Assembly: GCA_000092065.1 (NCBI GenBank)
Contig: CP000600.1
Length of the DNA stretch: 64,000 bases
Source: Ostreococcus lucimarinus
Lineage: Eukaryota
Strand: one strand, 5' to 3'
Below are positions 4,516 through 41,544 of this stretch, piece after piece. The notes below the pieces were generated by a model. That model did not search any database, was not told the origin of the DNA, and saw only the letters and a program-made list of their open reading frames with translations. Both the position numbers and the translations under genes were made by a program. Positions within the stretch are counted from its first letter, which is position 1; every line of letters starts with the position of its first letter.

Positions 4516-5049
4516 ATGTTTCGCAAGTACCACGTCGACGGCGTGCAGCAGCTCAAATCCAGCGTCCAGCGCGGGATACGAGCGAAGATTTCCGACCAGT
4601 ATCCCGCCCTGGACGACGCCCTGGACGATTTGATGCCCAAGAAAGCCACCGTCGTCATCGGCAAGTGCGAACACAAAACCAACGTCGTGCTCGTCGACGA
4701 CGAGCCGCTGTTCTTCAATCAGCGCGATGGGCCGTACTTTCCGACGCTGCGCGTGTTACACAAGTACCCGGACATGATGCCCAAGCTCCGGGTGGACAAG
4801 GGAGCGATCAAGTTTGTGATTTCCGGCGCGAACATCATGTGCCCGGGGTTGACGTCGAGCGGGGCGACGATGCACGACGAATGCGAGGAAGACGAACCGG
4901 TGGCGATATACGCGGAAGGAAAGGAACACGCGCTGGCTGTGGGTATCACGAAGATGAGCACGGAGGCGATGCGGACGGTGAACAAAGGAATCGGGGTGGA
5001 TTTGGTGCACTATTTGAAGGATGGCTTGTGGGAAGCGACGGCGAAGTGA
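4516..5049 (+). CDS. MCTS1: MCTS1/Tma20-like PUA-domain protein (translation re-initiation factor)
   Basis: Collinear match over the whole protein to MCTS1 (QLKSSVQRGIRAKI, LMPKK, FFNQRDGPYFPTLRVLHKYP, VDKGAIKFVISGANIMCPGLTS, AEGKEHALAVGITKMS, VNKGIGV, HYLKDGLW). Confidence 0.9.
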   Translation: MFRKYHVDGVQQLKSSVQRGIRAKISDQYPALDDALDDLMPKKATVVIGKCEHKTNVVLVDDEPLFFNQRDGPYFPTLRVLHKYPDMMPKLRVDKGAIKFVISGANIMCPGLTSSGATMHDECEEDEPVAIYAEGKEHALAVGITKMSTEAMRTVNKGIGVDLVHYLKDGLWEATAK

Positions 5050-5227
5050 GAAAACGAGTCGGCGAGCGCGAACGCATTTGTAGAAACTAGATGAATATAT
5101 TTATAGAGACGAAACGTTCGTGTGAGAGTGTGTATCTAACTAATCGAGCCTCGAGTCGAGAGGACTCGTTCGCCGCCGTCGCCATCCCAAGCCGCTCCCG
5201 CGCGCCGCCTCGCAATCGACCGACCCG

Positions 5228-5848
5228 TCAGTCGTTATTCTTCAACCCGCCTGACCCGCCCGCGCTCGCGCCCGCAAACTTCGGCTTCCCCGTCGTGAAC
5301 GGCACGTATTTATGCTTAATCATGTGCTTCACCTGCTGTTTCATCGTCATGAAAAACAACATGATGAAGTACATTAACAAAATCGGCCAAAACACCGGTA
5401 TGTCGAACATCGGCATAAACGTCATCGCGAACGCCGTCCCGATCGACTTCAAGCTCATCCACCAAAACTTAAACTCCGGCAATCGCCGCACGAACGGTTT
5501 GAATTCTTGTTCGTTGCTCGTCGGCAGCGACGGTCCATCGTCGCCGTCGTTCGACGCGCGCAGCGATTCGGGATCGTTTCGCGGGCTCAGAAATCCAATC
5601 AACAGGTTCAGGTTATAGATCCCCAGCCCGTACGTCACGATGTAGTACCCCCGCAGAAAGTACGCGCGAATCGCGTACACCAGCGCGACGCACGCGTACG
5701 CGCTCCACCGTTCGGCGCGCTTCGGGACAGATTTATCGAGAAAGATTTGAAGACGCTGCGCGAGTTTCGCCTGCGCGCGCGCCAACGGCGAGGACGATTC
5801 GTCCGTCGGCGCGCTCGCGCCGTACGCGTACGATTCCCCCGGGTTCAT
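5228..5848 (-). CDS. RER1: RER1 (retrieval of ER membrane proteins)
   Basis: RER1 signature blocks (FLDKSVPKRAERW, YFLRGYYIVTYGLGIYNLNLLIGFLSP, DDGPSLPT, EFKPFVRRLPEFKFW, FDIPVFWPILLMYFIMLFFMTMKQQVKHMIKHKYVPF). ORF 5228..6265 was trimmed to the MNPGESY Met. Confidence 0.85.
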   Translation of the reverse strand: MNPGESYAYGASAPTDESSSPLARAQAKLAQRLQIFLDKSVPKRAERWSAYACVALVYAIRAYFLRGYYIVTYGLGIYNLNLLIGFLSPRNDPESLRASNDGDDGPSLPTSNEQEFKPFVRRLPEFKFWWMSLKSIGTAFAMTFMPMFDIPVFWPILLMYFIMLFFMTMKQQVKHMIKHKYVPFTTGKPKFAGASAGGSGGLKNND

Positions 5849-8031: not shown

Positions 8032-10182
8032 CTAGCGTGAGTCGTCGATGTCTCTCATGAATCGGTGAGTGGCTTCTTCTAGCGGAGTTCGTACAACACG
8101 AACGGATTCTCGCGTGAGACGATTGCGGATGCGCATCTTGACGGCGCGCGCTCGAGGCGCGCTCCAATTGTAGCATAGCATATTAGCACAAACCAAAGAT
8201 TCGCCAGGTTGAAGGTTTCGTACGTCGCTCAAGTTGGCTTCCTGCAGTGCCGCGTTACGTGCAATGTGATCAAACCAGCGCGCAGAGTTGAACTGGTGCA
8301 AAACGTGCACCGTCGCGAGCTCGACGAGGGCCTCAGGAATCGCGAATGGGCTCGTCGTGCCGACGACGAGACGCGTGTTTGTCCGATGCATCGTTCGAGC
8401 GGCGTTCACAAGTTGACCAGCAAATCCCGCTCGCGAGCCGAGGCTGAGCAACAGATCCGCGTCATCGATTACGATGAGCTTTTTCGGTGGGGAGCGTCGG
8501 TTCCGTGCGGTCCGTTTCAACGGGAGATCCATTTTTTGAAACATGCTGAGAGCGACTTGGAAGATGGCGTCTACAAAATCCGGCTCGTACTCCGAATGCG
8601 TCACGTCGACGACGTTGAGCGCGTCGACGAGCACGGCTTGTTCGAACACGCGCATCACTACGCCCTCGACGTGAACATTTTCGTAGTTTTCGTAGATGAA
8701 TGATTTGACTTGCTGCGCGCGCGCAAGGAGTAACTGTCCACGACTTCCATCTCTCTGGGCTCTAAAGCTGTCGCACAATCCTTCAAAAAATTGTTTGAAC
8801 GAAGTCCGGTGACGAATCATCTTCAAAATCTGCTCGTCATCTTCTATGCCGAGCATAATGCACAAGTGCTCGCTCGTGAGCGAATTCCATCCGAAAAGTA
8901 GTGGCGAAACCATTCCGACGAAACCATTCCGATCGTACTCGTCGCAGATTTCTGGAGCGCGACTTTCGATATGTTTGGGCGCCGAGAGCACTTTGACATT
9001 AGGCGCGCGACAGTTGGAATTTTTGCCACAGAGCGTTTCCAAATGTAGACTCAAGACGGATAACCCGAGAAAATTCGCAAGCGATGCATCTTTAGAAAAG
9101 GCGTCGGTCGTCGAAGTGCTAAACGTAATCGCCGTCGTCCAGTCCTGTGGCGGGTCAACCATTCCCTGACGCATCAAACAGTTTTCGACGAGTACATCGA
9201 CGGTGTGAGACGTACTCGCCCCGGGTGCGCCGTACACCAGACCACAGAACGGAATGCCGACGTCCATGAACATTTCTCTCTTATCGACGAATTCGTTTTG
9301 CGCAAAATGCTTCGGAACGTCGAACAGCGTTCCCAAGACGGCCATGTCTCGAGCCGTCTCGTCGACTCTGTCGTGGCTCACAAGCGTCGGACGCGCGTCT
9401 CTCCACGCGCGGCCGACTGACCTATCGCACATGTACGCCAACACACTCGCGGCGCCGGCGGACTTGTCTAAAGCGATAGGAGAGGAGTCCGTCCCGTGCT
9501 TCGGCGAAATCTCCGCGCTGTCGTCGAAAACCGGCGCAGGCGACCCCGATCGCTCGCTCCCGGCACTTTCCAGCGCATCATACACATTCCGCACTCGCAC
9601 CGGCGGCGGCGCCTTCTGTTCCACCACGCTCGCAAATTTCGCCGCCTTCGCCGTTTCCTTCGCCGCGTGCGCCAGTTCCTGATGTCGTCTCGTCCGCGCG
9701 TGTTGCAACCAATTATTCGCCAAATTCGCCTCTCCGCTGCCCCGAATCGTCACCGCGCACGTCTCGCACGTCCTCGTCGGGAATTCCAACGCCGATTCCC
9801 CCACCGTCGCGCGCGCTCTCCCTCCCGGCTCCCTCTTCTCGAGCTTCGTCCTTCGTCGCCGCTCCGCGTTCAGCAAGTGTTCCTCCGAGTTCGCGTGTCG
9901 CCCCCACGCCGCGAAGAACTGCTTCTTATCGTCCTCGTTCACCTCGAAGTTCTCGCACAGCGTGCACTTGCGATGGTACTCCCGCTTCGGCGTCGTCTCG
10001 CGCGTCGCGCCGTCGCCGTCGCCGCGGACGCGCGCGCCGCACGCGCCGTCCCGATGTTTCGCGAGCGCTAAACTCGCGAGCGTTTCCGACGCCCCGAAGC
10101 ACACCTCGCCGCACCGCTCGCACGACGCGCACCACGCGTCGTCGTCGTCGCTTTCGTCCGACGTCTCGCTCGACGCGCGCAT
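8032..10182 (-). CDS. Hypothetical protein: C2H2/U1-like zinc-finger motifs plus a P-loop NTPase-like domain with degenerate Walker A
   Basis: Cys/His clusters (WCASCERCGEVC, HRKCTLCENF..H..EEH, CETCAV..HARTRRH). Walker A-like GLVYGAPGASTS lacks the Lys; Walker B is LIVIDDADLL. ORF 8032..10755 was trimmed to the MRASSETSDESDDDD Met because the upstream part is Arg-rich filler. Confidence 0.5.
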   Translation of the reverse strand: MRASSETSDESDDDDAWCASCERCGEVCFGASETLASLALAKHRDGACGARVRGDGDGATRETTPKREYHRKCTLCENFEVNEDDKKQFFAAWGRHANSEEHLLNAERRRRTKLEKREPGGRARATVGESALEFPTRTCETCAVTIRGSGEANLANNWLQHARTRRHQELAHAAKETAKAAKFASVVEQKAPPPVRVRNVYDALESAGSERSGSPAPVFDDSAEISPKHGTDSSPIALDKSAGAASVLAYMCDRSVGRAWRDARPTLVSHDRVDETARDMAVLGTLFDVPKHFAQNEFVDKREMFMDVGIPFCGLVYGAPGASTSHTVDVLVENCLMRQGMVDPPQDWTTAITFSTSTTDAFSKDASLANFLGLSVLSLHLETLCGKNSNCRAPNVKVLSAPKHIESRAPEICDEYDRNGFVGMVSPLLFGWNSLTSEHLCIMLGIEDDEQILKMIRHRTSFKQFFEGLCDSFRAQRDGSRGQLLLARAQQVKSFIYENYENVHVEGVVMRVFEQAVLVDALNVVDVTHSEYEPDFVDAIFQVALSMFQKMDLPLKRTARNRRSPPKKLIVIDDADLLLSLGSRAGFAGQLVNAARTMHRTNTRLVVGTTSPFAIPEALVELATVHVLHQFNSARWFDHIARNAALQEANLSDVRNLQPGESLVCANMLCYNWSAPRARAVKMRIRNRLTRESVRVVRTPLEEATHRFMRDIDDSR

Positions 10183-10248
10183 CGAGCGTCGCGTCGCGCG
10201 GAGAGAAGTGACGCGCGGGGTCGTTGACCGAGATCGACACGACGACAG

Positions 10249-10980
10249 ATGACGACGCCCGCGATCGACGAGCTCGACGCCGCGCTCGCGCTCGCGGACG
10301 ACGCGCGCGCGGCGGTGGGCGACGTTCAACGCGCGCTGCGCGCGAACGGACGCGACGCGAGGGACGGCGATGCGGTGGCGAACGCGATCCGACGGCTCGC
10401 GCGAACGGCGGAAAAGATCGACGTAACGTGGCGCGCCGTCGTCGCGAGCGATGGGTATCGATCCATGGCGCGCGAGGACGCGTTGGAAGACGGCGAGGCG
10501 CGCGAGGCGCGCGCGGGCGCGCGCGCGCGCGAAGGCGGTGATGGCGACGGGAAGGGCGCGAGCGGTTTGGCGGCGAGCGCGCGCGAGGCGAACGCGCGAG
10601 GCGGCGTGCGAGCGGAAACGTCCGCGGACGACGACGGAACCCTCGTGCGCGTGATCGCGCCCGGTGCGTTCGACGCGCGATGGCGCGCGAACGATCCCGC
10701 GAACGCGGCGACGACGACGGCGCGCGCCGTCGACGGCGGCGTCACCGCCGCGCACGCCGCGCTCTCCGACCGGTTACTCGAATTCGCCGCCGACGCGCTC
10801 GCGCGCGCGGGCGACGCCGAGGCGGCATCGATAGAAATACTCGCCTGGCTCGAGGATCTTCGCGACGTGTTCGTCGTCCCAGATTTCGCGAGCGGCGGCC
10901 GCGTGCTCGCGCCGGACCCGTCTCGCGGCGGCGTCCTCGTCCCCGGTCGCCTCCTCCCCGGTCGCGTCGCTCGCGCGTGA
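10249..10980 (+). CDS. Hypothetical Ala/Asp/Arg-rich protein
   Basis: A 243-aa ORF with a real ATG and protein-like composition, unlike the pure Arg runs of spurious frames. Divergent from the upstream gene with a 66-bp spacer. No recognisable domain. Confidence 0.35.
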
Positions 10981-11422
10981 CGTCGCGTGTAATCGACGCA
11001 TCGCGCCCCCTTTCCATCGCTCGCGCGCGCCGCCGTCTCGTCTCGCGTCGCGCGCCGCGTCGATCGACCCCCCTCGTCGACCGACTCATCGACCGTTAGT
11101 CGTCGGTGCGGTGCAAATCTCATCTCGTCGCGACGGTTCAGGACTCGTCGAACGGATTCGTCAACCGTTCACGGGCCGCGCCCTGTCGCACACCGCGCCG
11201 TCGCCGTCGACGACGACGGCGACGCGCGCGCGCGCGAGCCGCGGACTCTCGGACGGGACGCGTCGCCGTCGCGAGATGGACGCGCGGACGCGCCGCGACG
11301 CCGCGACGCGCGCGCGACGCGAATGCATCGCCCGCGGCCGCGGCGACAACGGCCGCGCGCGCGCGCGCGATGACGCGCGAGGAAGGACGCGCGAGGCGAA
11401 GGGACGGCCGGCGGCGCGCGCG

Positions 11423-14400
11423 ATGGGGGCGAGGCGAACGCGCGGATCGGGACGACGCGGGACGAATCGGCGCGGCGCGGCGCTGGCGACGGCGCTGGCG
11501 ATGGGTCTGACGCTCGCGGTCGAGGGGGCGACGTCGCCGTTTACGTCGCGCGGCGATTTAGATAACGCGATCATGGCGTGTCTGGCGGACGACGAAACGT
11601 TGGCGACGTGCAGGGACAGCGCCGCGACGCCGGTGCCGATTGGCTCGTGGGACGTCGCAGCCATCGTCGACATGTCGAGGTTGTTCGACTCCGGGTCCGT
11701 CGGACGCTTTGTGAACGTCGACATCGGTTTGTGGGACACGTCATCGGTGACCGACATGAACGCCATGTTCAAAGGTCAGACAAACTTCAACCAAGACCTC
11801 AGCACGTGGGACACGTCATCGGTGACGGACATGAGCGGTATGTTCCACGACGCGTCGAGTTTCAATCAGAACATCCCGACGTCGGGAGTACAATGGGACA
11901 CGTCACAAGTCGAGTTCTTTGATACGATGTTCAAAAACGCGGTGGCGTTCAATCAGGACATCAGCTCCTGGGTCGTCAGCGCCGCGGCAAACTTCAATTC
12001 CATGTTCTCTGGAGCGACGAGCTTCAACCAGGACATCACCGGATGGATTGGCGCCAGCGGTGCCTCCGCGGACAATATGTTCTCTGGAGCGACGGCGTGG
12101 CTCAACAACTACGGCCCGACCACAGCGGGCTCAACCACAACCGATGGTCCCGCGAGCGCGTGGGGCAAGTTATGCGCGGCGAACCAGCGCGTGGTTTCGA
12201 ACGCGTGCCAGGCGTGCCCCACCGGGAGCGTGCGCGCCGCGGGCGATAATGCAAAGGGAGTTGACACGGCGTGCGCGTGTCCCGCCAACCATTATTACGT
12301 CTCGGGCGGTGGGTGTTTGGCGTGCGCTAGCGGTCTGTTCCGTCTCGCGGGTGACGTTGCGCCCGGAGGACATACGGCGTGTACGTACGCGTCGCCGTTC
12401 ACGTTGAAGGCCGAACTCGTGAACACGATCGCGTCTTCGTACTGCCTGGGCGGCGCCGCCGCCCCCACCGGAGCTTCGTGTACGGACGGCAAGGGGTTGG
12501 GGATCGCGAATTGGGATGTCAGCGGTGTCAACGACATGGCGGGGTTGTTCCAAGCGTCCAGTTCTAGCTGGACCTCGACCACGTTCAACGCTGATTTGAG
12601 CCTGTGGGACACGTCGTCGGTGGTAGACATGAACAACATGTTCAACGGCGCGACGAGCTTTAACCAGGACATCAGCTCGTGGGACACGTCGTTGGTGGTG
12701 AACATGAACAACATGTTCAACGGCGCGACGAGCTTTAACCAGGACATCAGCTCGTGGGTGACGCAATCGGTGACGGACATGGGCGCGATGTTTGAAAACG
12801 CGGCGGCGTTCGACCAGCCCATCCCGAAGTCGGGATCACAGTGGGACACGACGTTGGTGAAGGACATGAGCAACATGTTCTTCGGCGCAGCGGCGTTTAA
12901 CCAAGACCTCAGCACGTGGGTGACGCAATCGGTGGTGGACATGAGCGCGATGTTTCAAAACGCGCCGCTCTTCAATTATAGTATGGTGACATCGGGTAGC
13001 GTTTGGGACACGTCGTCGGTGACAAACATGGACAACATGTTCAAAGACGCGGTGGCGTTCAACCAGGACATCAGCTCCTGGGTCGTCAGCGCCGTGGCAA
13101 ACTTCAATTCCATGTTCTCTGGAGCGAGGAGCTTCAACCAGGACATCACCAGATGGAATAGCGCCAGCGATGCCTCCGCGGACAATATGTTCTCTGGAGC
13201 GGTAGCGTGGATCACCGACTACGGCCCGATGACAGCGGGCTCAGTCGATGGTCCCGCGAGCGCGTGGGGCAAGATATGCGCGGCGAACCAGCGCATTGTT
13301 TCGAACGCGTGCCAGGCGTGCCCCACCGGGAGCGTGCGCGCCGCGGGCGATAATGCAAAGGGAGAGGACACGGCGTGCGCGTGTCCCGCCAACCATTATT
13401 ACGTCTCGGGCGATGGGTGTTTGGCGTGCGCTAGCGGTCTGTTCCGTCTCGCGGGTGACGTTGCGCCCGGAGGAGATACGGCGTGTACGTACGCGTCGCC
13501 GTTCACGTTGAAGGCCGAACTCGTGAACACGATCGCGTCTTCGTACTGCCTGGGCGCCGCCGCCGCCCCCTCCGGAGCTTCGTGTACGGACGGCAAGGGG
13601 TTGGGGATCGCGAATTGGGATGTCAGCGGTGTCAACGACATGGCGGGGCTGTTCCAAGCGTCCAGCTCTAGCTGGACCTCGACCACGTTCAACGCTGATT
13701 TGAGCTTGTGGAACACGTCGTCGGTGGTGAACATGAACAACATGTTCAACGGCGCGACGAGCTTTAACCAGGACATCAGCTCGTGGAACACGGCGTTGGT
13801 GACGGACATGAACAACATGTTCAACGGCGCGACGAGCTTTAACCAGGACATCAGCTCGTGGAACACGTCGTTGGTGGTGAACATGAACAACATGTTCAAC
13901 GGCGCGACGAGCTTTAACCAGGACATCCGCTCGTGGGTGACGTCGTCGGTGACGGACATGGGCGCGATGTTTGAAAACGCGGCGGCGTTCGACCAGCCCA
14001 TCCCGAAGTCGGGATCACAGTGGGACACGACGTTGGTGAAGGACATGAGCAACATGTTCTTCGGCGCAGCGGCGTTTAACCGAGACCTCAGCACGTGGGT
14101 GACGCAATCGGTGACGGACATGGGCGCGATGTTTCAAAACGCGCCGCTCTTCAATTATGGTATGGTGACATCGGGTAGCGTTTGGGACACGTCATCGGTG
14201 GCAAACTTCAATTCCATGTTCTCTGGAGCGACGAGCTTTAACCAGGACATCAGCTCGTGGAACACGGCGTTGGTGACGGACATGGACAACATGTTCAAAG
14301 ACGCGGTGGCGTTCAATCAGGACATCAGCTCCTGGGTCGTCAGCGCCGCGGCAAACTTCAATTCCATGTTCTCTGGAGCGACGAGCTTCAACCAGGACAT

Positions 14401-17400
14401 CACCGGATGGATTGGCGCCAGCGGTGCCTCCGCGGACAATATGTTCTCTGGAGCGACGGCGTGGCTCAACAACTACGGCCCGACCACAGCGGGCTCAACC
14501 ACAACCGATGGTCCCGCGAGCGCGTGGGGCAAGTTATGCGCGGCGAACCAGCGCGTGGTTTCGAACGCGTGCCAGGCGTGCCCCACCGGGAGCGTGCGCG
14601 CCGCGGGCGATAATGCAAAGGGAGTTGACACGGCGTGCGCGTGTCCCGCCAACCATTATTACGTCTCGGGCGGTGGGTGTTTGGCGTGCGCTAGCGGTCT
14701 GTTCCGTCTCGCGGGTGACGTTGCGCCCGGAGGAGATACGGCGTGTACGTACGCGTCGCCGTTCACGTTGAAGGCCGAACTCGTGAACACGATCGCGTCT
14801 TCGTACTGCCTGGGCGGCGCCGCCGCCCCCACCGGAGCTTCGTGTACGGACGGCAAGGGGTTGGGGATCGCGAATTGGGATGTCAGCGGTGTCAACGACA
14901 TGGCGGGGTTGTTCCAAGCGTCCAGTTCTAGCTGGACCTCGACCACGTTCAACGCTGATTTGAGCCTGTGGGACACGTCGTCGGTGGTAGACATGAGCAA
15001 CATGTTCAACGGCCAGATGGCGTTCAACCAACCCATCCCGACGTCGGGGTCACAATGGAACACGGCGTTGGTGACGGACATGAACAACATGTTCAACGGC
15101 GCGACGAGATTTAACCAGGACATCAGCTCGTGGGACACGTCGTTGGTGGTGAACATGAACAACATGTTCAACGGCGCGACGAGCTTTAACCAGGACATCA
15201 GCTCGTGGGTGACGCAATCGGTGACGGACATGGGCGCGATGTTTGAAAACGCGGCGGCGTTCGACCAGCCCATCCCGAAGTCGGGATCACAGTGGGACAC
15301 GACGTTGGTGAAGGACATGAGCAACATGTTCTTCGGCGCAGCGGCGTTTAACCAAGACCTCAGCACGTGGGTGACGCAATCGGTGGTGGACATGAGCGCG
15401 ATGTTTCAAAACGCGCCGCTCTTCAATTATAGTATGGTGACATCGGGTAGCGTTTGGGACACGGCGTTGGTGACGGACATGAACAACATGTTCAACGGCG
15501 CGACGAGATTTAACCAGGACATCAGCTCGTGGGACACGTCGTCGGTGGTGAACATGAACAACATGTTCAACGGCGCGACGAGCTTTAACCAGAACATCAG
15601 CTCGTGGAACACGGCGTTGGTGACGGACATGGGCGCGATGTTTCAAAGCGCGGTGGCGTTCAACCAACCCATCCCGAAGTCGGGATCACAGTGGGACACG
15701 TCGTTGGTGACAAACATGAACAACATGTTCGGCGGTGCCACGGCGTTCAACCAGGACATCGGCTCCTGGGTCGTCAGCGCCGTGGCAAACTTCGATTCCA
15801 TGTTCTCTGGAGCGACGAGCTTTAACAAGAACATCACCGGATGGATTGGCGCCGGCGGTGCCTCCGCAAACAACATGTTCTCTGGAGCGACGGCGTGGAT
15901 CGCGAGGTACGAGCACACGTCCAATCCTGGCAACAGCTTTCATGGTCCCGCGTCGGCTTGGACTGGTCCCGTTCCGTTTGCCAACTTGGCCGCTTTGCAA
16001 ACCGCCGTGACCAATTGCTTGAACAGCGCTCCGTCCGGCGCGTGCACGTGCTCGCCCAGTGTCGACTGCGGCGCCGCGCTGTACGAACCGATCACAAACT
16101 GGGACACGAGTCTGGTCGCCGACATGAATGCTTTGTTCCAAAGCGCCACTCTTTTCAACGCCAACATTGGATCGTGGAATACCGAGCAGGTGACGAGAAT
16201 GGACAACATGTTTAGCGGCGCGGCTGCGTTCAACCAGCCAATTGGCAGTTGGAACGTCACCGCGGTCACCGATGCGAGCCATATGTTTCAGGGCGCTACG
16301 GCTTTTGTTCACGACATCACCGGTTGGGTTTTATCGCAGACGCCCCAGGCGAATGTGACGTCAATGTTTGTCAATGCGATAGCATGGATAAACGAGCGTG
16401 ATCGTATAGACGGATCCGCGTCTCTCGACGGTCCACCCTCGGCGTGGTACACGCCGGCGCCGCCGCCGCCGCCGTCACCGCCGCCACCCCCGCCACCAAC
16501 GTGCGGTAACGGTGTCTACGATGCCGCTGGTACGAACCCAGATGGAACTCTTGGGGAGACGTGTGAACCGTACGGGAATTCCATCGATAACACCGTTCTC
16601 GTGCAGGGTTGCGATCCAGCCACGTGCGCGCCTTTTGAGAACTGGCAGTGCAACGATCCGTCTACGATCGGCACACCAGATTACAACTGTACGTGCAACA
16701 ATCCCGCAGGCACGTACGCGTTACCAGATGTCAATTTTTGCGCGCGCGTGAAATGCGTTTACGCAGATCGATGTCTCTCCGAAGGCCGCGGCTGCGCGCC
16801 TGGTGCTGGTGGCAACGCGTGCGACCGTTGCTACACGGCGCAAGACATCGTCGATCTCGGATTGGAAGCTTCTCTAGCCAAAGCGGGTTACTACAAAACG
16901 GGCCAAACGTGCACTGAGTGCCCTGGGACCTCGGCAGGTCAACTCTTCGCTGCCGCTACGCTTGTAGTCGTTCTGGCGTTCTTTGGTTTCAAAGCTTCGC
17001 AAGTCATGGGCCCTCAAGCGACAAACAACTTGAAGAAGATTATCGAATCTTTGCAGTTTTTTTCGCTTTCGCTGAGTATGGACATCAAATGGCCTGGCCC
17101 GGTACTTAACCTCGGCAAGTACTTGGAAGCTTTCACGTTCAGCGTCGACTTTCTGAGACCAGAGTGCGTGGCTACTGGTCTCAATTGGCTCAATATTTTC
17201 CTAGCGTCTGTGTTTGTTGTCCCTGCACTTATCTTTTTCATCATCGTCTTCAACAACTTCAGATCAAGGCGACGGTTCGAACGAACAGTGCGTTCAATTC
17301 ACTGCGAACGGCGCGATGGAGGTGCGATGGTATACTGGATTGAAAGACCGGGTCGTTTGTGGGGCATAAGGCGCACGTTCGAATCCAAAGGAGGAGATAA

Positions 17401-20400
17401 AATTGTCAAGGAATTGCAGAGGCAATACCGCTTCCGAGCCTCCCTCAGAAGCTTTGGCGTGTTGTCCATGACTGTGTTATACCTGCCCATAGTCCGTATG
17501 TGCCTCCAGGCTTTCGACTGTCTCGAAATAGACGGTATCGAGAGCACGCGTCTAGAACACGACATCGACATCGATTGCGAGAGTACTTCTCATGTGACAA
17601 TCCAGGCGGCGGCGGCGGTTATGTTGGCCATCGTCGGAATCGGTATGCCGATTTACGTCATCTCACAAGTGCGGAAACTTTCAAATACGGGGAAGTTAGA
17701 TGATCCACAAACCATCGACGCATACGGTCCATTCTACGATATATATCGTAGAGAAGATCTTACGTATTCGCACAAATTGGAGATTGCCAGACTTCGACAA
17801 ACGACGGTTCGCTCGAGATCTATTCCTCGCGGTAGCGACGATGAAGACGATCGCGAAGAAACGACGTTTGATACCGAAACTGAGCGTGTCGCTGATGAAA
17901 TTGAAAACGATATCAGACAAGATATTGAGGAACCAAACGAAGGCACTTCGTTGGAAACTACCGATGGACCCACTGACGACGTCGAGCAAGGTGAAGATTT
18001 CAACCCTGAACTCGGGAAGAAGAAAGTTTTTGGTAAAGGAAGAAAGTCAAAAGACGGGCGCTTAGCTCAAGTATTATCTATGAGTAAGTCAATGTTGCAG
18101 CGCACTCCGTCTGCGCAAGCGCGCGAGCGCGTGAAAAAGATGAGCTGGAAAGATCGGTTCTCAGTGTATTACCTCTCGGTGGAATTATGCCAGAAGAGCG
18201 GTGTCATTCTCATGACTTCGCCCTTCATCAGCGCTTCGCCTCTCAGTGGCTGGGGCCTTGTATTCATCCACTGGTTCCTCGGCATTTTCGTCTACATTTG
18301 TCAACCTTGGAGAATAATCACGTTGAGTTTCTTCGGTTTTAAGGTGTCAAATTGTCTGAACAAAGTCGAAACTATGGCGGCGTTCCTGCAAGGTGTGACG
18401 CCCGCCTTGGCGATGATATGGCCAGTTAAGCGAGACGCTGACGGCATCGTGCAGGAAAGTTTCACGCTCGAGATGATGACTGGTCTTATGACTGCCATCA
18501 TCACGGGTTTACTCGCTATTCGCATCATCGTATTCGTCGGGGAACGCGTCGCGGTCAAACGCGCAAAGATGGACATCGACAAGGAACCCGAAGCATGCAT
18601 TGAGATTGTTCGTGAACGACTCGTCGAGATGGCGAAGAAACGTGCGGTCGTGAGCTTGTTCGCGTTCAAGGCAGACTTTGATATAACACGGCGCAAAGCG
18701 CGGGCGAGAATAGAGATCACGCGTCAAGCTATGTTGACTAGAATCGACACTTTGAAGTCGGAGATGGCTAGCACCGAAGGTCAGGGTATCGATTACACGG
18801 AGCAAATCACGGCCTTGTATGAAGTGGCGAATCAGATGGCACATATCGTGAATACCGTTGTACCGATGCCTCCACCTGTTGGGCCTGCTGTAGAGGAGCG
18901 TATAGACGCTCTCGAGGCGCAGTTGTCGAAACTTTCCGTGGCCGAGGACGAACGCTACGTCGCCGCACGACAAGAGTCAGAGCCGTCGCCGAACGCTGCG
19001 GCAATGCACATAATTTTCAAGGTGCACATCGTCGATTGCATCGTTGCACAAGTCAACGAACAGCTTGAAGTATACGCGAGTGCAGAGTTAGTGAGCGATT
19101 TAGCCGTTCTTGGACGACGACATGCCGAGTTGTTGAGCGAGCAGAGCGCCATAACTTCTCAATTCGGCGACTCCGAGCTTCGTGCAACTTCAGACGAGTT
19201 ATCTTCATCAGCCGTTCCGTTACTAGAAGCGAACGAACGTGATGACTTCGAAAAGGTATCTTCCACGCTCCATCACTGTGCGAGCGTCATCGATGCGCAC
19301 GCGCAGTGGTGTATGACGCAGAGCGAGCTGTTCAGTGGCCTCAAGAGGGAGCACCCTACTTTCCTTCCGGACGAACCACCATTGACAACGGAGTGCTTCG
19401 AATCGTGCATCAAAGATCTGAAGACACATGAAAAGCAGATGGAGTTAGTTAGGACGCAGTGCATCAGCGACTGGCTTCCAATGTTCAAACATTTCGGTTG
19501 CGTCAAGTATCTCAGAGGGTTCGCCGAGCAGATTCGTAATCAACTCAGTCTCAATCTCAATGGAGAGATCACGCCAGAAGAAGCCAAGGTGGTGTATGAT
19601 GACACCGTTGCCTTCATGGATGGCTTCGCCTCGTGGTGTGCAGATTTGTGTGGCATAATCGAAACGTCAGACGTTTTCAATGAGTTTCAACCCATCGCCT
19701 CGGCCATGATGAAGAGCCTGAAGGTGATACAGATCGACGCTAAGAAGCAAAGCATGCTCGCTCAAAAAGTACTGTCGGCCGTCGACTATGCTTTGGCGCA
19801 GAAGTCCACCGCAGAGGCCGTGCGAAATAATTTGCAGCAGGCGTTGCGCGATTTAACGTCGAAAATGGAGGAGCATCTTGCCGTTCAGATGGATGAAATG
19901 AAGAATGAGAAGATCGCTCTCGAGAGAGCGTATGAAGAAGAAAAGGTGCAAACCGAGGAGGACATCAACGTCCTCGAGAAAACGTTCGCTGAGAGAAAGG
20001 CCACGATGGAGCGCGAATTTGCACTGCAGCGCGACATAGTCGAACGATTACTCGTCATGAAGCAAGAAGAGAAGGCCGCGGTCGCTCCGTCTTTGAACCC
20101 ATTCAGACGCGTACGCTTCGAGTACGAAAACGAGCTCGCGAGCGCCAATAAGGAGTGCCTCAGGATCTCACGAGCCTTGGAGAGAGAAGAGAACGTGAAA
20201 AATATGCAGTGTGAAAACTTGCTTCGAGCGATGCAGCAAACCGAGCGTCAGCTGCGAGCGCAGATTAAAATCCACGATTCACTCATGGCAAAGATGGAAG
20301 CCGATGTCTTGGATCACCTCAAAAAGCAAGGCAACGTGGCGCAAAAGCGAACGGCTCACGATATCGCGGCGAACAAGGCCGTGCTCGCGTCGCGAAAAGC

Positions 20401-20683
20401 CATCTATAAGCAGCAACGTATCGCTGCACAGCTGTACGTATCCGTAGAACGCGAGACTACGAGAGCTCAAGTCGGTCTCACGAGAACGAAACTTGCGGTG
20501 GCTAAACGTAAAGGGCTGCTTGTACGCACAACCTCGCGCCTGACGGGAAAATCCCTGCGGTCAAAATCGCGAAAGAAAGCGCACGACGAAAACGAGACGG
20601 TCAAAGACGATCAACAAGAAAAGGAGGTTGAAGATCAAACCGCGGTTGATGAAAAAAGCAACGTCACGGAGACGAAGACGTAA
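11423..20683 (+). CDS. Giant DUF285-repeat transmembrane coiled-coil protein (about 3086 aa from the predicted signal peptide)
   Basis: - Signal-peptide-like start: [35 protein letters not shown].
- About 50 tandem 25-27 aa repeats of consensus [25 protein letters not shown] (DUF285, Mycoplasma-type).
- Three cysteine-rich inserts: [45 protein letters not shown]...
- Pro-rich linker [12 protein letters not shown] near 16450.
- Cys-rich module from about 16500 to 16900.
- About 7-8 TM helices from about 16930 to 18550.
- Long Glu/Lys-rich coiled coil from about 18600 to 20683.
- ORF 11111..20683 was trimmed to the Met of the signal peptide. Confidence 0.75.
11930..15470 (+). repeat. Three tandem 1.1-1.25 kb near-identical coding units inside the giant gene (units start near 11930, 13040 and 14290)
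   Basis: Each unit restarts with FK(N/D)[15 protein letters not shown](A/V)[10 protein letters not shown] and contains the same Cys-rich insert. The antisense ORFs 12170..12766, 13241..13657 and 14534..15031 translate to almost identical peptides, and so do 12295..12942, 13399..14121 and 14659..15393, which shows near-identity at nucleotide level. Units A and C share GGHTACT/GGDTACT-type variants against B. Confidence 0.7.
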
Positions 20684-37611: not shown

Positions 37612-40600
37612 CTAACTCGGAGGGTGCCCGGCGCAAAGCGAACGATACTCGCGACGGATCAGTCCGTGTCCGATTTCGAGGAGTAAATCGTTGAAGCGAT
37701 AGAGCACGCCGCACGACGTCGAATCACTCGGCGGTAAGACTGAAATGCGTCTGAGCGTTTCGTTCGGGGCGAACATCGCGGTGAGGGTGAGGAACAGCAA
37801 GACGACCGAAACGATGATGAAAAACGTGACGAGCATTTGTACGGCTTCGTTGAGTGTCTCTGGACGCGAAGGCACGCGCCACGAACCACCTGGCGTTCGC
37901 GTCGGTGCCGTCGGCGTCGCCAAGGTGAACTTATTGAACAAGTTGTTTGGCGGCGTGCGCGCCACCGTTCTGTTCGTTTGTCGAGAGAACCATTTTAACG
38001 GAGACGCCAACTGCGTTTGCATGAGTGGCGACCCAAACGATCTGCTCTTCTTCGGTGAAATCAATGAAGGGCTGTTATTTTGATAGCGAGCGAGCTGCGT
38101 CCGAGCGTGTTCGCTCATCTTATTCGCCGCCGCCAGGGCTTCCTTGGACGCTTTCAATTCAGCTTCCGTCGCGGCGGAGTGTTTTTCCAGCCAAACTTTC
38201 GCCGCGACGGCATCGGAGAGTTGCGACTCTAAGTCGCGCATCGTGCTCTTCGCTTCGTCTCGCTCAGCGCGTACTTTGCGTAATTCGTCGTAGTCGCCCT
38301 CCTGCGTCATCGACGCGTCACGTCTAGCGGTGGCGAGCAACTCGTTCGCGTGCTCTAATTGATGCTGCAAGCTCGTATAGTTGGCTCGAAGCTCGGAAAT
38401 TGATTCTCGAGCTTGTGATAACTCGTGTTGTTTATCGTCCAGCGCTTTGCTCAACGCCTCGCTGGCGTGATCGCCGCTCGCAGACATTTGTCGAATAGTA
38501 TCAAGCTCTTTACGAATCACCAACATCTCTTTATCCTTCGACTGCACCGCATCTTTCACAGCATTCTTCACTTGCGCGGCAAACGCCAAGCGTTCAAGTT
38601 CTAAACGTTTCTCCATGCTCGTGATTGACTGCTGGAGCAAATCTCGCTCGGCGGTGACTTTCGTCAAGTCTATGGTCAAGTCTTTCACTTTCGCCAACGC
38701 CGCATCGCGCGAAGCCTTGGCTTCCCTCAACTCGCCTGCATCCGTCTTTGAATGCGTTTTCGAAGCGACTTTTTCCTTTTCCAACTCTTTGTTCAGCAAA
38801 AGCAGTTCGGTATTCACTTCGTACACTCGAGATTCCGCCGCGGCAAATTGACGTCGCACTTCTTCGAGTTCAGTCTCCACCGTGACTCGCACTTCGCATT
38901 CAGCCTTCAAACGCCGCTCGCTTTCGTCCAGTGACTTCTTACTCTCCTCTGCGCTCGCCTTCCACTCTCCCAGTTCCTTGGCGAGTTCGACTATTCGACT
39001 TTCAGCCGCCTCTAACTTTCTATGCAATTCAGCGACGACGGCGGACGACGAGTCGCGGTCGCGCTCAACCTTCGCAGAGGACGCATGTTTCTCTCGCAAA
39101 ATTTCAATCTCCTTGTTCAAAAAGCCAACTTGCTTTTCCAACTTTGTGACTTGCGAATTGGCGATCATGTTAGCCTTTGCCGCCATGGAAGATTCAAGTT
39201 CGTGCTCATCCGCCATCGATGAAATTTCTTGCTCAGCGACGTGCAGCTTTTTTCTCAGCTCTTCTGTCTCCGATCCGGCCAAATCTGCGGCGGTTTCCAA
39301 GCCCGCTACTTTCCCTTCTAACGACAAAACTTCTTCTCTCGCACTCTTAAGTTCTAAAACGTGCTCTGAACGTTCGACCTCCATGAGTTTTAGTTTAGCG
39401 TTCGCGGCTTGAAGCTCTTCGTTCAGGTGAGAGAACTCGACATTGGAAAATTCCTTCTCGGCGAGCTTACTCTTCAAATCCGACAGCGCGCTCTTCGCTT
39501 CGCTCAGTTGTTCGAGAGTGACTTCAAGCTTTTCCTCGAAAAGAATTGCGTTCTGAGAGACGGCTTCGTACGCGGCTTCTTTCTCGGCCAACTTTTGCCG
39601 AAGACTCTTCAACTCCGCGGTGCCGCTCTCGATTTCAGCGCGCGCTTGCGCTTCGAGCTTTTTCTTTTCCGCCTCGAGACTTGATTTCATTTCGAGCATT
39701 CTTCCTTGGAATCCTGCTTGTTTCTCAGCCGCCGCAGCCAAACGCGCGGCGAAGGCTTCCTTCGCTGACTCCGACTTTTCCTCCGTCGTCATCGCCTTTT
39801 TGCTCTCCTTTTCGAGTTTGATGCGAAGCGTGGACATTTCAACCTTCAACGATTCCAGCTCAGTTTCAAAGTTTCGACATTCGGAAGTCTTCGTTTGCAA
39901 CGCCGCGCGAGTGTCCTCGAGAGCAACGATAGTTTCTTCTTTTATCCTCTTTTCGTTCTCGATCACGCTCTCTCGCGCGATGATTTCAGCGCGCAACTTT
40001 ATAACCTCGTCCGCGACTTCGCCTCGCTCGACGCGCGCGCGTTCTGTCTCTGCCTGCGCAGCGTCGATTGCTGCATCCTTCTGCAACATCGTACTATTCG
40101 TCATCGTCACGGTCTCGTTCAGACGAACGATATCTTCTTTCAATCTTGCGTTCTCGCTCTCTAAAATCTCAAACTGGCTCGATTTTTCGTTTTGCTTCGT
40201 CTGTTGGGCTTGGAACTCCGCCACGGCGGCGACGATTTTCTCCTCGCTCGTCGCCAACGCCTCGCTGAGACGCGCGATTTCGAGCTTGAAATTTTCCGCT
40301 TCGCCCTCCATCGTGGCCTGTGCGACTTGATAATTTTCAAGTTTGGCGTTCGCATCTCTCAAATCCGTTGCAGACGCCGCCAGACTCGCCTCCAAGTTCT
40401 GTATGGTCGACTCGTCGGCGTGAATCTTCGTCTCCGTCTCTTGCAGTGACATCTCCAAGCGCTCAATTTTAATCGAGTAATCCCGCACGGAAAACTCTAG
40501 CTTGGTCGACTCTGATGCATACTCTTCGCCAGCTGCCTTCAGCGCCGACTCGTGCTCGCGCCTCGCGTTCGCGAGTGCTTCTTGCAAGCGTTCAGTCTCG

Positions 40601-41544
40601 TCCAGCGCCTCGTCGCGTTGCTTCGTCATCGCCATCAAACGGCTCTCCGTCTTCGACATTCGCGCTTCAGTCGTCTTGAGGTCTTCCTCCGTGGCAGAAA
40701 TCATCGCACCCATGCGCACGCGCTCGTTCAGCCACGTTTGTTTCTCGATCGCCATCGCCTCAAGATCGCGCTGGATCGCCGTCACCTTGGCGCGAAGTTG
40801 CTCCACCTCGAACTCGACGGCTTTTGCGTTCATTCCCCCGGCGACGACGAGCGCGCGCGCGTCCACATCCATCGTCGACGACGACGCCACTCTCACCGTC
40901 GTCGGCGGTTTCGGCGACATCAACGACATCCTCAACGCCTGCGGTGGCGTCATCGACGCCCTTCGCACCGTCATCGTCGTCGTCGTCGTCGTCGTCTCCC
41001 TTTGCCTCGCCGCTCGCGTCTCCGCGTCCTCCATCATATGCGTCGACCTCAACGTCCCAATCCCCCCGTGTCCGACTCTCACCGGCGTTCGCACGTCGTC
41101 ATCATCATCGCCGTCTCCCACCATCACCAAACTCTTCCTCGTCGCCGACGTCGTCGCCATCGTCGTCGCCAACCTTCGCGCGCTCGCCTCGGCGCGTCTC
41201 GCCGTTTCGCTCATCTTCATCCTCGACGCGCTCGTCTCCGTCTCCACGCGCATTTTCCGCGCCGACGCCCGCGCGGATGACATCACGCGTTCCGCCTCCG
41301 ACCGCACCGTCGTCGCTCGCGCGTCGTTCAGCCGCACGGGCGTCACTGGGTCGTCATTCTCGTCGACATTCGTTTCGTCTTCCCGTTCGCGCGATTCGTC
41401 GCGCGCGCGCGCGTCGTCGTCGTCGTCGCTCGCGGACGCGCGTCGCGCGCGCATCGCGTTCGACACGTGCTCGCGGACAAATTTTACGAAGGCGTCGTCG
41501 TCGGCGTCCGAGTCGGAGGACGCCGCGCCGGGACGCGAAGACAT
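37612..41544 (-). CDS. Long coiled-coil protein (about 1310 aa) with C-terminal transmembrane anchor (golgin/CASP-like tail-anchored)
   Basis: About 1000 aa of heptad-like Glu/Lys/Leu/Ala-rich sequence; a single C-terminal hydrophobic helix MLVTFFIIVSVVLLFLTLTAMF; acidic Ser/Asp-rich N-terminus; ATG confirmed. Confidence 0.7.
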   Translation of the reverse strand: MSSRPGAASSDSDADDDAFVKFVREHVSNAMRARRASASDDDDDARARDESREREDETNVDENDDPVTPVRLNDARATTVRSEAERVMSSARASARKMRVETETSASRMKMSETARRAEASARRLATTMATTSATRKSLVMVGDGDDDDDVRTPVRVGHGGIGTLRSTHMMEDAETRAARQRETTTTTTTMTVRRASMTPPQALRMSLMSPKPPTTVRVASSSTMDVDARALVVAGGMNAKAVEFEVEQLRAKVTAIQRDLEAMAIEKQTWLNERVRMGAMISATEEDLKTTEARMSKTESRLMAMTKQRDEALDETERLQEALANARREHESALKAAGEEYASESTKLEFSVRDYSIKIERLEMSLQETETKIHADESTIQNLEASLAASATDLRDANAKLENYQVAQATMEGEAENFKLEIARLSEALATSEEKIVAAVAEFQAQQTKQNEKSSQFEILESENARLKEDIVRLNETVTMTNSTMLQKDAAIDAAQAETERARVERGEVADEVIKLRAEIIARESVIENEKRIKEETIVALEDTRAALQTKTSECRNFETELESLKVEMSTLRIKLEKESKKAMTTEEKSESAKEAFAARLAAAAEKQAGFQGRMLEMKSSLEAEKKKLEAQARAEIESGTAELKSLRQKLAEKEAAYEAVSQNAILFEEKLEVTLEQLSEAKSALSDLKSKLAEKEFSNVEFSHLNEELQAANAKLKLMEVERSEHVLELKSAREEVLSLEGKVAGLETAADLAGSETEELRKKLHVAEQEISSMADEHELESSMAAKANMIANSQVTKLEKQVGFLNKEIEILREKHASSAKVERDRDSSSAVVAELHRKLEAAESRIVELAKELGEWKASAEESKKSLDESERRLKAECEVRVTVETELEEVRRQFAAAESRVYEVNTELLLLNKELEKEKVASKTHSKTDAGELREAKASRDAALAKVKDLTIDLTKVTAERDLLQQSITSMEKRLELERLAFAAQVKNAVKDAVQSKDKEMLVIRKELDTIRQMSASGDHASEALSKALDDKQHELSQARESISELRANYTSLQHQLEHANELLATARRDASMTQEGDYDELRKVRAERDEAKSTMRDLESQLSDAVAAKVWLEKHSAATEAELKASKEALAAANKMSEHARTQLARYQNNSPSLISPKKSRSFGSPLMQTQLASPLKWFSRQTNRTVARTPPNNLFNKFTLATPTAPTRTPGGSWRVPSRPETLNEAVQMLVTFFIIVSVVLLFLTLTAMFAPNETLRRISVLPPSDSTSCGVLYRFNDLLLEIGHGLIRREYRSLCAGHPPS

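Follow-up and report, generated by a model that had tools for sequence, protein, structure and literature searches.

What does a run of near-identical coding units inside one very large gene represent, how did its units come to be so alike, and does their number hold from strain to strain? We considered these questions for a locus of the marine picoalga Ostreococcus lucimarinus CCE9901 contained in a 64,000-nt stretch of DNA (GenBank assembly GCA_000092065.1, contig CP000600.1), which we call the window and whose first letter is position 1. A preliminary description, made from the letters alone, had placed three tandem units of 1.1-1.25 kb at 11930-15470 within a giant gene. We refer to these units as A, B, and C. 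On the combined evidence we are fairly confident that the locus is a genuine intragenic tandem array, with recent copying between units A and C and unequal exchange between strains, in a gene for a giant, probably surface-located protein.

Comparison of positions 11000-17000 with themselves by BLAST gave three diagonals, at offsets of 1110 nt (A against B; 89.7% identity over 1031 nt), 1254 nt (B against C; 91.9% over 1352 nt), and 2364 nt (A against C; 96.3% over 845 nt). A repeat search matched 12142-12441 exactly to 14506-14805 and at 98% identity to 13246-13545, and the longest exact repeats in the array measured 434, 354, and 261 nt. All units lie inside a single plus-strand reading frame that runs uninterrupted from 11111 to 20683 (3190 codons), as seen in both the open reading frame (ORF) list and the translation. 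A degenerate codon pattern for leucine-rich repeats (LRRs) matched 20 times in the window and in none of 100 shuffled sequences, which excludes a chance origin of the repeat. As all 20 matches fell within 11999-16242, no other donor of such repeats was found in the window. These results confirm three near-identical tandem units within the giant gene. The place given in the preliminary description was right, and its size and extent needed correction, since the units measure 1104, 1260, and 1431 nt from linker to linker and end near 15940 rather than at 15470.

To map the modules of the protein, we divided its translation at the Trp residue that is conserved in the repeats. The Pfam family DUF285 (PF03382, "PARCEL") matches the protein in 14 stretches at a score of 1098.4 bits, far above its gathering cut-off of 25, and Tandem Repeats Finder reported periods of 75 nt and 150/162 nt between 12604 and 15631. 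Approximately 43 LRRs of 25 or 29 aa each, with the anchor W..(S/T).V..M..MF......FNQ(D/N)I, are grouped into five DUF285 LRR domains (D0 to D4), and three Cys-rich linkers of 82 aa precede D1, D2, and D3 (Table 1). Each unit therefore consists of a Cys-rich linker, an N-cap, 9-13 LRRs, and a C-cap, giving a nested repetition of LRRs within modules, and both the number of modules and the number of LRRs can change because the unit is itself built of shorter repeats. A diverged partial copy of the unit tail is present at 15692-15991. A 14-nt imperfect palindrome, CGGCGTGTACGTACGCGTCG, occurs at each junction of linker and N-cap (12375-12394, 13479-13498, and 14739-14758). A search of the array for inverted repeats of 14 nt or longer lying within 80 nt recovered this palindrome alone, once per unit, and nothing that recurs with the LRR period.

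Table 1. Positions in the window of the giant gene, its modules, and the tracts shared by units A and C.
Feature	Position	Strand	Description
Giant gene	11276-20683	+	About 3,135 aa from the probable ATG at 11276; frame open from 11111
LRR domain D0	11528-12145	+	N-cap 'SPFTSR..' and 6 repeats; tail from 11937 on is part of the tract shared by A and C
Unit A	12146-13249	+	Linker 12146-12391, N-cap, 9-repeat LRR domain D1
Unit B	13250-14509	+	Linker 13250-13495, 11-repeat LRR domain D2; diverged middle unit
Unit C	14510-15940	+	Linker 14510-14755, 13-repeat LRR domain D3
A/C tract 1 (696 nt)	11937-12632 = 14301-14996	+	One mismatch; spans LRR tail, C-cap, linker, N-cap, and first repeat
A/C tract 2 (354 nt)	12659-13012 = 15110-15463	+	Exact; LRRs b-e
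LRR 'y' (87 nt, 29 aa)	14969-15055	+	Within the window only in unit C; separates the two A/C tracts
LRR domain D4	15941-16426	+	N-cap directly, without Cys linker, and 4 repeats; single-copy in the window
Pro-rich (poly-Pro) hinge and Cys-rich stalk	16427-16933	+	15 Cys
Region with about 6 predicted transmembrane segments	16934-18520	+	Peaks of 1.6 or higher in a hydropathy scan with a 19-aa window
Charged, helix-rich (coiled-coil-like) C-terminal tail	18521-20683	+	About 720 aa and stop codon

The resemblance between units A and C is concentrated in two tracts that are separated by LRR 'y'. The lone mismatch of the longer tract is a C/G difference at position 12371, which replaces His by Asp and corresponds to the GGH/GGD variant; unit B differs from the exact 354-nt tract at 10 sites. 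In unit A, the first full repeat looks like LRR 'y' joined in register to the LRR that follows it. Over 1076 nt, units A and C thus differ by about 3 substitutions and one in-register 87-nt LRR indel, while unit B is 4-10% diverged from both; in a three-way alignment of a 700-nt core, B departs from A and C at approximately 27 sites and by a 6-nt indel. Similarity falls sharply outside 11937-13012, with tract ends at 11936/11937, 12632/12633, 12658/12659, and 13012/13013, and these boundaries lie inside LRR codons. It had been proposed that A and C share variants against B. This holds for GGG/GDG, and GGH/GGD instead sets A apart from B and C, which are alike.

We estimated synonymous divergence (dS) and its ratio to nonsynonymous divergence (dN/dS) between units by the Nei-Gojobori method, segment by segment. 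For the linker block, dS was 0 between A and C (153 codons) and 0.036 for both A-B and B-C, and for the LRR blocks of various unit pairs it ranged from 0.017 to 0.152; taken by segment, the values were 0, 0.017, 0.036, 0.085, 0.127, and 0.152. This heterogeneity indicates that the divergence of the units is neither old nor uniform and that their ages form a mosaic. Strong purifying selection acting on an old triplication could in principle keep A and C similar with no recent recombination, and the linker and N-cap are indeed the part most conserved among units and species. We regard this as extremely unlikely, because synonymous sites are identical as well (dS of 0 over the 153 codons and an exact 354-nt stretch), dS between other unit pairs reaches 0.15, identity stops abruptly at the tract boundaries, and orthologues at 55-57% identity have one linker, so that the triplication is not old. 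The divergence between A and C, approximately 0.1-0.3%, is comparable to or below the 0.1-0.4% found between strains in the flanks, which argues that the copying event is recent. Together, the few A-C differences, the linker dS of 0, the distance of unit B, and the abrupt ends bear out the earlier proposal of recent gene conversion or unequal crossing-over.

Near-identity of this kind might also be produced by the reference assembly, if the reads of one unit had been placed twice and CCE9901 truly had fewer units, and both tracts are close to the length of a Sanger read. This explanation is very unlikely in our view, given that the A and C copies are flanked by different unique contexts on both sides, that they differ by the 87-nt LRR and by diagnostic substitutions, that the intervening unit B is clearly distinct, that the reading frame is unbroken across the array, and that three linkers recur in two independent assemblies made from other samples. 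A single unequal crossover as the source of the A/C pair was rejected, since it predicts adjacent duplicates or an order A-B-A'-B', while the identity ends at 13012 and unit B is not duplicated.

We compared the array with the corresponding loci of environmental assemblies, in which L denotes contigs or loci and P denotes proteins, and the spacing of landmarks was measured from linker to linker. Two very large contigs, L004 (ENA ERZ10646527 contig_13684, 362,699 nt) and L007 (JGI Ga0494219_00060, 559,637 nt; flanks 99.7% identical to the window), contain three linkers each. Their size, their naming, and residual frameshifts suggest that both are long-read assemblies. With the window, all three contiguous assemblies have three linkers, and the order of their units is not orthologous. 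D0 and the three successive units span 618, 1115, 1189, and 1353 nt in L004 and 1011, 1173, 1330, and 1353 nt in L007, with 618 nt for D0 of the window; D4 has a length of 486 nt in all assemblies compared. No sign was found that the true copy number of this genome is other than three, as the preliminary description had allowed.

A second group of assemblies contains a single linker. In the short-read loci L001, L002, and L003, D0 spans 621, 615, and 612 nt and the sole unit 1278, 870, and 1338 nt, respectively. Five full-length proteins (P0003, P0004, P0005, P0124, and P0128; 2159-2347 aa) have the window-type N-terminus and one Cys linker each, and the one-linker contigs (k141_360502, k141_465952, k141_184378, NODE_2421, and NODE_163) each have a different LRR-domain length. 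All five contigs bear names given by de Bruijn assemblers (k141_ names from MEGAHIT; NODE_ and _cov_ names from SPAdes), and their flanks are 98.5-99.7% identical to the window, with which they are collinear up to approximately 12700-13081 and again from approximately 15524-15530. Two clusters, with 64 and 67 mostly partial proteins, have representatives that start inside the LRR array, indicating that many contigs break there. A 5'-truncated JGI contig (L008/P0104) carries LRRs of the D1/D2 type upstream of its only linker and must therefore have at least two units. The expectation that such an array is prone to collapse during assembly was thus upheld, by the single linker in the five full-length genes from k-mer assemblers and by the two clusters that begin in the array.

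The one-linker forms could instead be real alleles, such that populations would hold one-unit and three-unit versions through unequal crossing-over. Their intact frames, their five different lengths, and private in-frame variants that do not occur in the window ('HYV' and 'GGAAPTG') speak for this possibility, and deletion in vivo by non-allelic homologous recombination would leave the same junctions as collapse in silico. We nevertheless consider real one-unit alleles unlikely. All five genes come from de Bruijn assemblers, the exact repeats of the array (261-434 nt) exceed k = 141, and the three contiguous assemblies agree on three linkers; the two or more units at the truncated JGI locus and the many contigs that end in the array point the same way. 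The simplest reading, and the most likely one, is that three modules are the usual state and that the one-module contigs are collapsed.

Strain differences in the array are structural. In L007, repeats r1-r3 of D0 lead straight into repeats a-h of D1, and the window segment 11904-12605, including linker A, is absent. A B-type linker follows, with 6 differences from window B and 11-12 from A and C; after it comes a D2 that lacks LRR 'x'. Next are a linker and a hybrid unit whose head is of the D3 type and whose tail is of the D2 type, and the series closes with linker C and D3. Linker C of L007 shows no differences from window C over 460 nt. L007 therefore has the structure of the window minus one module (the linker of unit A, with D0 fused to D1) plus one hybrid module, and the hybrid unit is the expected outcome of unequal crossing-over between D3 and D2. 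Unit 2 of L004 begins with LRR 'y', which in the window is exclusive to unit C. Unit lengths vary among the assemblies in steps of approximately one LRR, and the number of LRRs per unit differs by 1-5. The proposed variation between strains is accordingly present in the structure of the array and in its LRR counts, and the number of linkers is three in every contiguous assembly. The array thus shows neither the lack of population variation nor the old, uniform divergence among units that had been named as grounds for giving up the idea.

Concerted evolution implies, as an operational criterion, that units within a genome share variants that are absent from the equivalent units elsewhere, and this was observed. 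All three window units read 'HYYV', and a 3-nt deletion ('HYV') is present in all three units of L004 and all three of L007. Alignment columns 332-333 are GC in all three L004 units and TT or AG in those of the window. The 210-nt tails upstream of linkers 1 and 3 of the window are 1 nt apart and lie 9-33 nt from every tail of another strain. A second criterion, that dS varies along the unit and that tracts have sharp ends, likewise applies to this array. L001 and L004 have a distinct D0 tail ('WVVSSGV(D/N)...', 27-33 differences in 210 nt), while the D0 tail of the window is of the D2-tail type, as in unit C; the copying in CCE9901 therefore probably went from C to A.

These observations suggest how the array may evolve. 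The 75/87-nt LRRs and the 1.1-1.4-kb modules would both allow homologous recombination between copies that pair in frame but out of register. Approximately 1.1 kb of unit C (D2 tail, linker, and D3 head) would recently, in the CCE9901 lineage, have been copied over the matching part of unit A, by long-tract gene conversion or by replacement of the unit. Older exchanges may have left the mosaic levels of divergence between units, and unequal crossing-over would add or remove whole LRRs and modules between strains that are otherwise approximately 99.7% identical. The variable LRR surface that results could act as a rapidly diversifying face for recognition or adhesion.

Between strains (window against L001-L003), the LRR ectodomain, including the non-repeated D0, has diverged 10-30 times more than either the flanks or the C-terminal half. 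Compared with L001, the flanks and the C-terminal half have 0-2 mismatches per 500 nt, and mismatches rise to 17-21 per 500 nt at 11244-13081 and 20 per 500 nt at 15530-16030. Divergence of D0 between strains is 3-8%, with dN of 0.035-0.084, dS of 0.027-0.062, and dN/dS of 1.1-1.5. For the flanks and the C-terminal 1407 codons it is 0.1-0.4%, and in those codons dN is about 0.002 and dS 0.002-0.004; the C-terminal tail (18521-20683) is 99.6-99.8% identical. The raised dS of D0 points to templated exchange or old alleles no less than to selection on point mutations. A more far-reaching proposal is that intragenic conversion among approximately 40 LRR cassettes and three modules continually yields strain-specific ectodomains under diversifying or balancing selection, for which prasinovirus attachment or decoy, or gamete or self-recognition, could be the driver. 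We hold this to be quite unlikely, and a role in virus attachment or cell-cell recognition is speculation.

Several observations weigh against our overall interpretation. Both L004 and L007 contain frameshifts inside the array. In L007, two of them occur within approximately 130 nt (9379-9508) at the junction of the D3-type head and D2-type tail of the hybrid unit, and the remainder of the 25.8-kb locus is clean; they could be residual consensus error in a repeat or the mark of a genuinely disrupted allele. L004 is approximately 92% identical to the window upstream of the array, with many indels and broken ORFs, and 99.4% identical with 2 gaps downstream of it; the switch falls inside the array, between approximately 13900 and 15530 of the window, so that L004 is either a recombinant haplotype or a metagenome contig that is chimeric at the repeat. 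Either contig could be partly chimeric, and the array structure of CCE9901 itself rests on the reference assembly and on analogy with these two environmental contigs. The dN/dS between units (0.57-1.44) is not decisive as evidence for selection. An AlphaFold2 model of unit A, built on a 10-sequence alignment, had a mean predicted local distance difference test score (pLDDT) of 52.6, and a curved, capped beta-solenoid of the BspA-like or canonical LRR kind is thus no more than a candidate fold of the module.

Comparison with more distant relatives points to lineage-specific amplification, in which different modules have been multiplied in different Ostreococcus lineages. The complete orthologues at 55-57% identity (P0007 and P0009) contain one Cys linker. 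Among the relatives at 87% (P0131; also P0006), P0131 carries a single linker and, after it, the linker-less D4-type unit in four copies. A relative at 76% (L005) has at least five linker modules, with a cluster of Cys sub-repeats at 4892-5670 of that contig, which ends in the array.

The gene that carries the array would start at ATG 11276, since gene callers working on orthologous contigs choose the equivalent codon and the protein then starts with MDARTRRD. From the alternative ATG at 11423, the protein is predicted to have a hydrophobic, signal-like N-terminus. The best-supported reading is that the gene has a single exon and that its product is a multi-pass membrane protein, predicted to be exposed at the surface, with the LRR ectodomain as a variable binding face. 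Every unit contains antisense ORFs of 138-244 aa, which agrees with the earlier remark that peptides from both strands repeat. This is a trivial consequence of the DNA repeat, and the antisense ORFs were rejected as genes, being short, recurring only through the repeat, and lacking independent support; continuity, Pfam match, and conservation in orthologues are found in the plus frame only.

Searches with parts of the protein outside the DUF285 domains placed them in no known family. Pfam gave nothing significant for the linker, the stalk, the transmembrane region, and the tail; TNFR_ELAPOR1_6th (E = 0.069) and DUF7228 (E = 0.009) both scored far below their cut-offs. A sequence search of PDB with unit A and with the C-terminal 1418 aa returned no matches. 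The transmembrane region was modeled with a pLDDT of 67.5, and its best Foldseek match in PDB had an E value of 1.5, with no assignable fold. The conserved C-terminal half (16934-20683), which has no Pfam, PDB, or Foldseek match, resembles an uncharacterized membrane-protein family. As a query, the C-terminal 1410 aa recovered 42 homologues with identity down to 26%; among them are copies of this gene from many environmental assemblies (99-100% identity) and relatives at 87%, approximately 56%, and lower. A protein search with the linker and N-cap gave 8 matches, which pointed to the long contigs L004 and L005, and a scan of JGI metagenomes with the linker peptide found one distant locus only (L006, 64% identity).

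G+C content declines steadily along the gene, from 0.71 at 10001-12000 to approximately 0.60 in the array and 0.51-0.53 at 16001-20000; over the whole window it ranges from 0.51 to 0.71 in 2-kb bins. Elsewhere in the window, the long minus-strand ORFs 37612-41544 (1310 aa) and 45081-47666 (861 aa) lie in stretches whose AT skew is strongly negative (-0.24 to -0.26) and whose G+C is lower.

Intragenic tandem repeats whose copy number is altered by recombination are well known in microbial surface adhesins, such as yeast FLO/ALS, streptococcal alpha-C/Rib, and staphylococcal SasG/Aap. The giant gene resembles these in its long, in-frame units that are nearly identical at the DNA level, in repeat-number differences between strains, in assembly collapse, and in its predicted place at the cell surface. 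It differs from them in that their repeats mostly serve as simple stalks or spacers, whereas here the unit combines a capped LRR domain, putatively for binding, with a linker. LRR receptor loci that owe their diversity to unequal crossing-over and gene conversion are likewise well established, in plant Cf-4/Cf-9 and other R-gene LRRs and in the BspA-like LRR surface proteins of Trichomonas and Entamoeba. Polymorphism in the number of whole LRRs, mosaic exchange between paralogous LRR blocks, and raised nonsynonymous divergence in the LRRs (here in D0) are shared with those systems. There, exchange takes place between clustered paralogous genes, while here it is intragenic, and the plant-type repeat of R genes is replaced by the DUF285 type. 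That intragenic repeats in a surface LRR protein should evolve in concert is expected rather than surprising, as a kind of evolution known from other systems.

The DUF285 repeats were defined as PARCELs by Roske et al. 2010 (PMC2996958), who reported 10 such ORFs in O. lucimarinus; in their supplement, XP_001422532.1 appears with 38 repeats. That this entry is the giant gene is very probable from the adjacency of accessions and the count of repeats. Neighboring window proteins are identical to XP_001422527.1, XP_001422528.1, and XP_001422691.1 of the RefSeq set of O. lucimarinus CCE9901, and the first two are the upstream plus-strand neighbors, followed by three more plus-strand genes before the giant gene. 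An exact record look-up with the protein from either start (11423 or 11276) returned no entry, and the RefSeq model of the gene presumably has other boundaries. In common with PARCELs (PF03382, TIGR02167; PMC2996958), the protein has tandem amphipathic repeats of 25 aa (75 nt) with variable hydrophilic positions and a predicted membrane association, here through the signal-like N-terminus and six hydropathy peaks. The paper also describes a rarer pattern in which domain blocks are repeated and sometimes separated by spacers, with another O. lucimarinus ORF (XP_001422294.1) as example; in the giant gene the spacer is a defined Cys-rich module. Its carrier is a eukaryotic multi-pass protein of approximately 3,100 aa with a coiled-coil tail, as opposed to a bacterial lipoprotein. 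The periodic dyad symmetry of PARCELs was described from statistical MEME motifs, whereas the plain inverted-repeat search used here gave no LRR-periodic dyad of at least 14 nt. For XP_001422532.1, that paper does not describe near-identical super-units, their homogenization, or strain differences.

For genome resources, these results suggest that short-read metagenomes systematically mis-assemble the giant gene and probably other Mamiellales DUF285/PARCEL genes, that protein catalogues hold truncated or collapsed versions of it, and that population-genomic statistics at the locus are unreliable. For the biology of this model picoalga, the far higher divergence of the ectodomain and its dN/dS above 1 make the protein a reasonable candidate for strain-specific surface determinants toward viruses, grazers, or mating partners. 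If the shuffling of LRR cassettes and modules were true, the structure of the array would predict virus host range or mating compatibility among Ostreococcus strains that are 99.8% identical.

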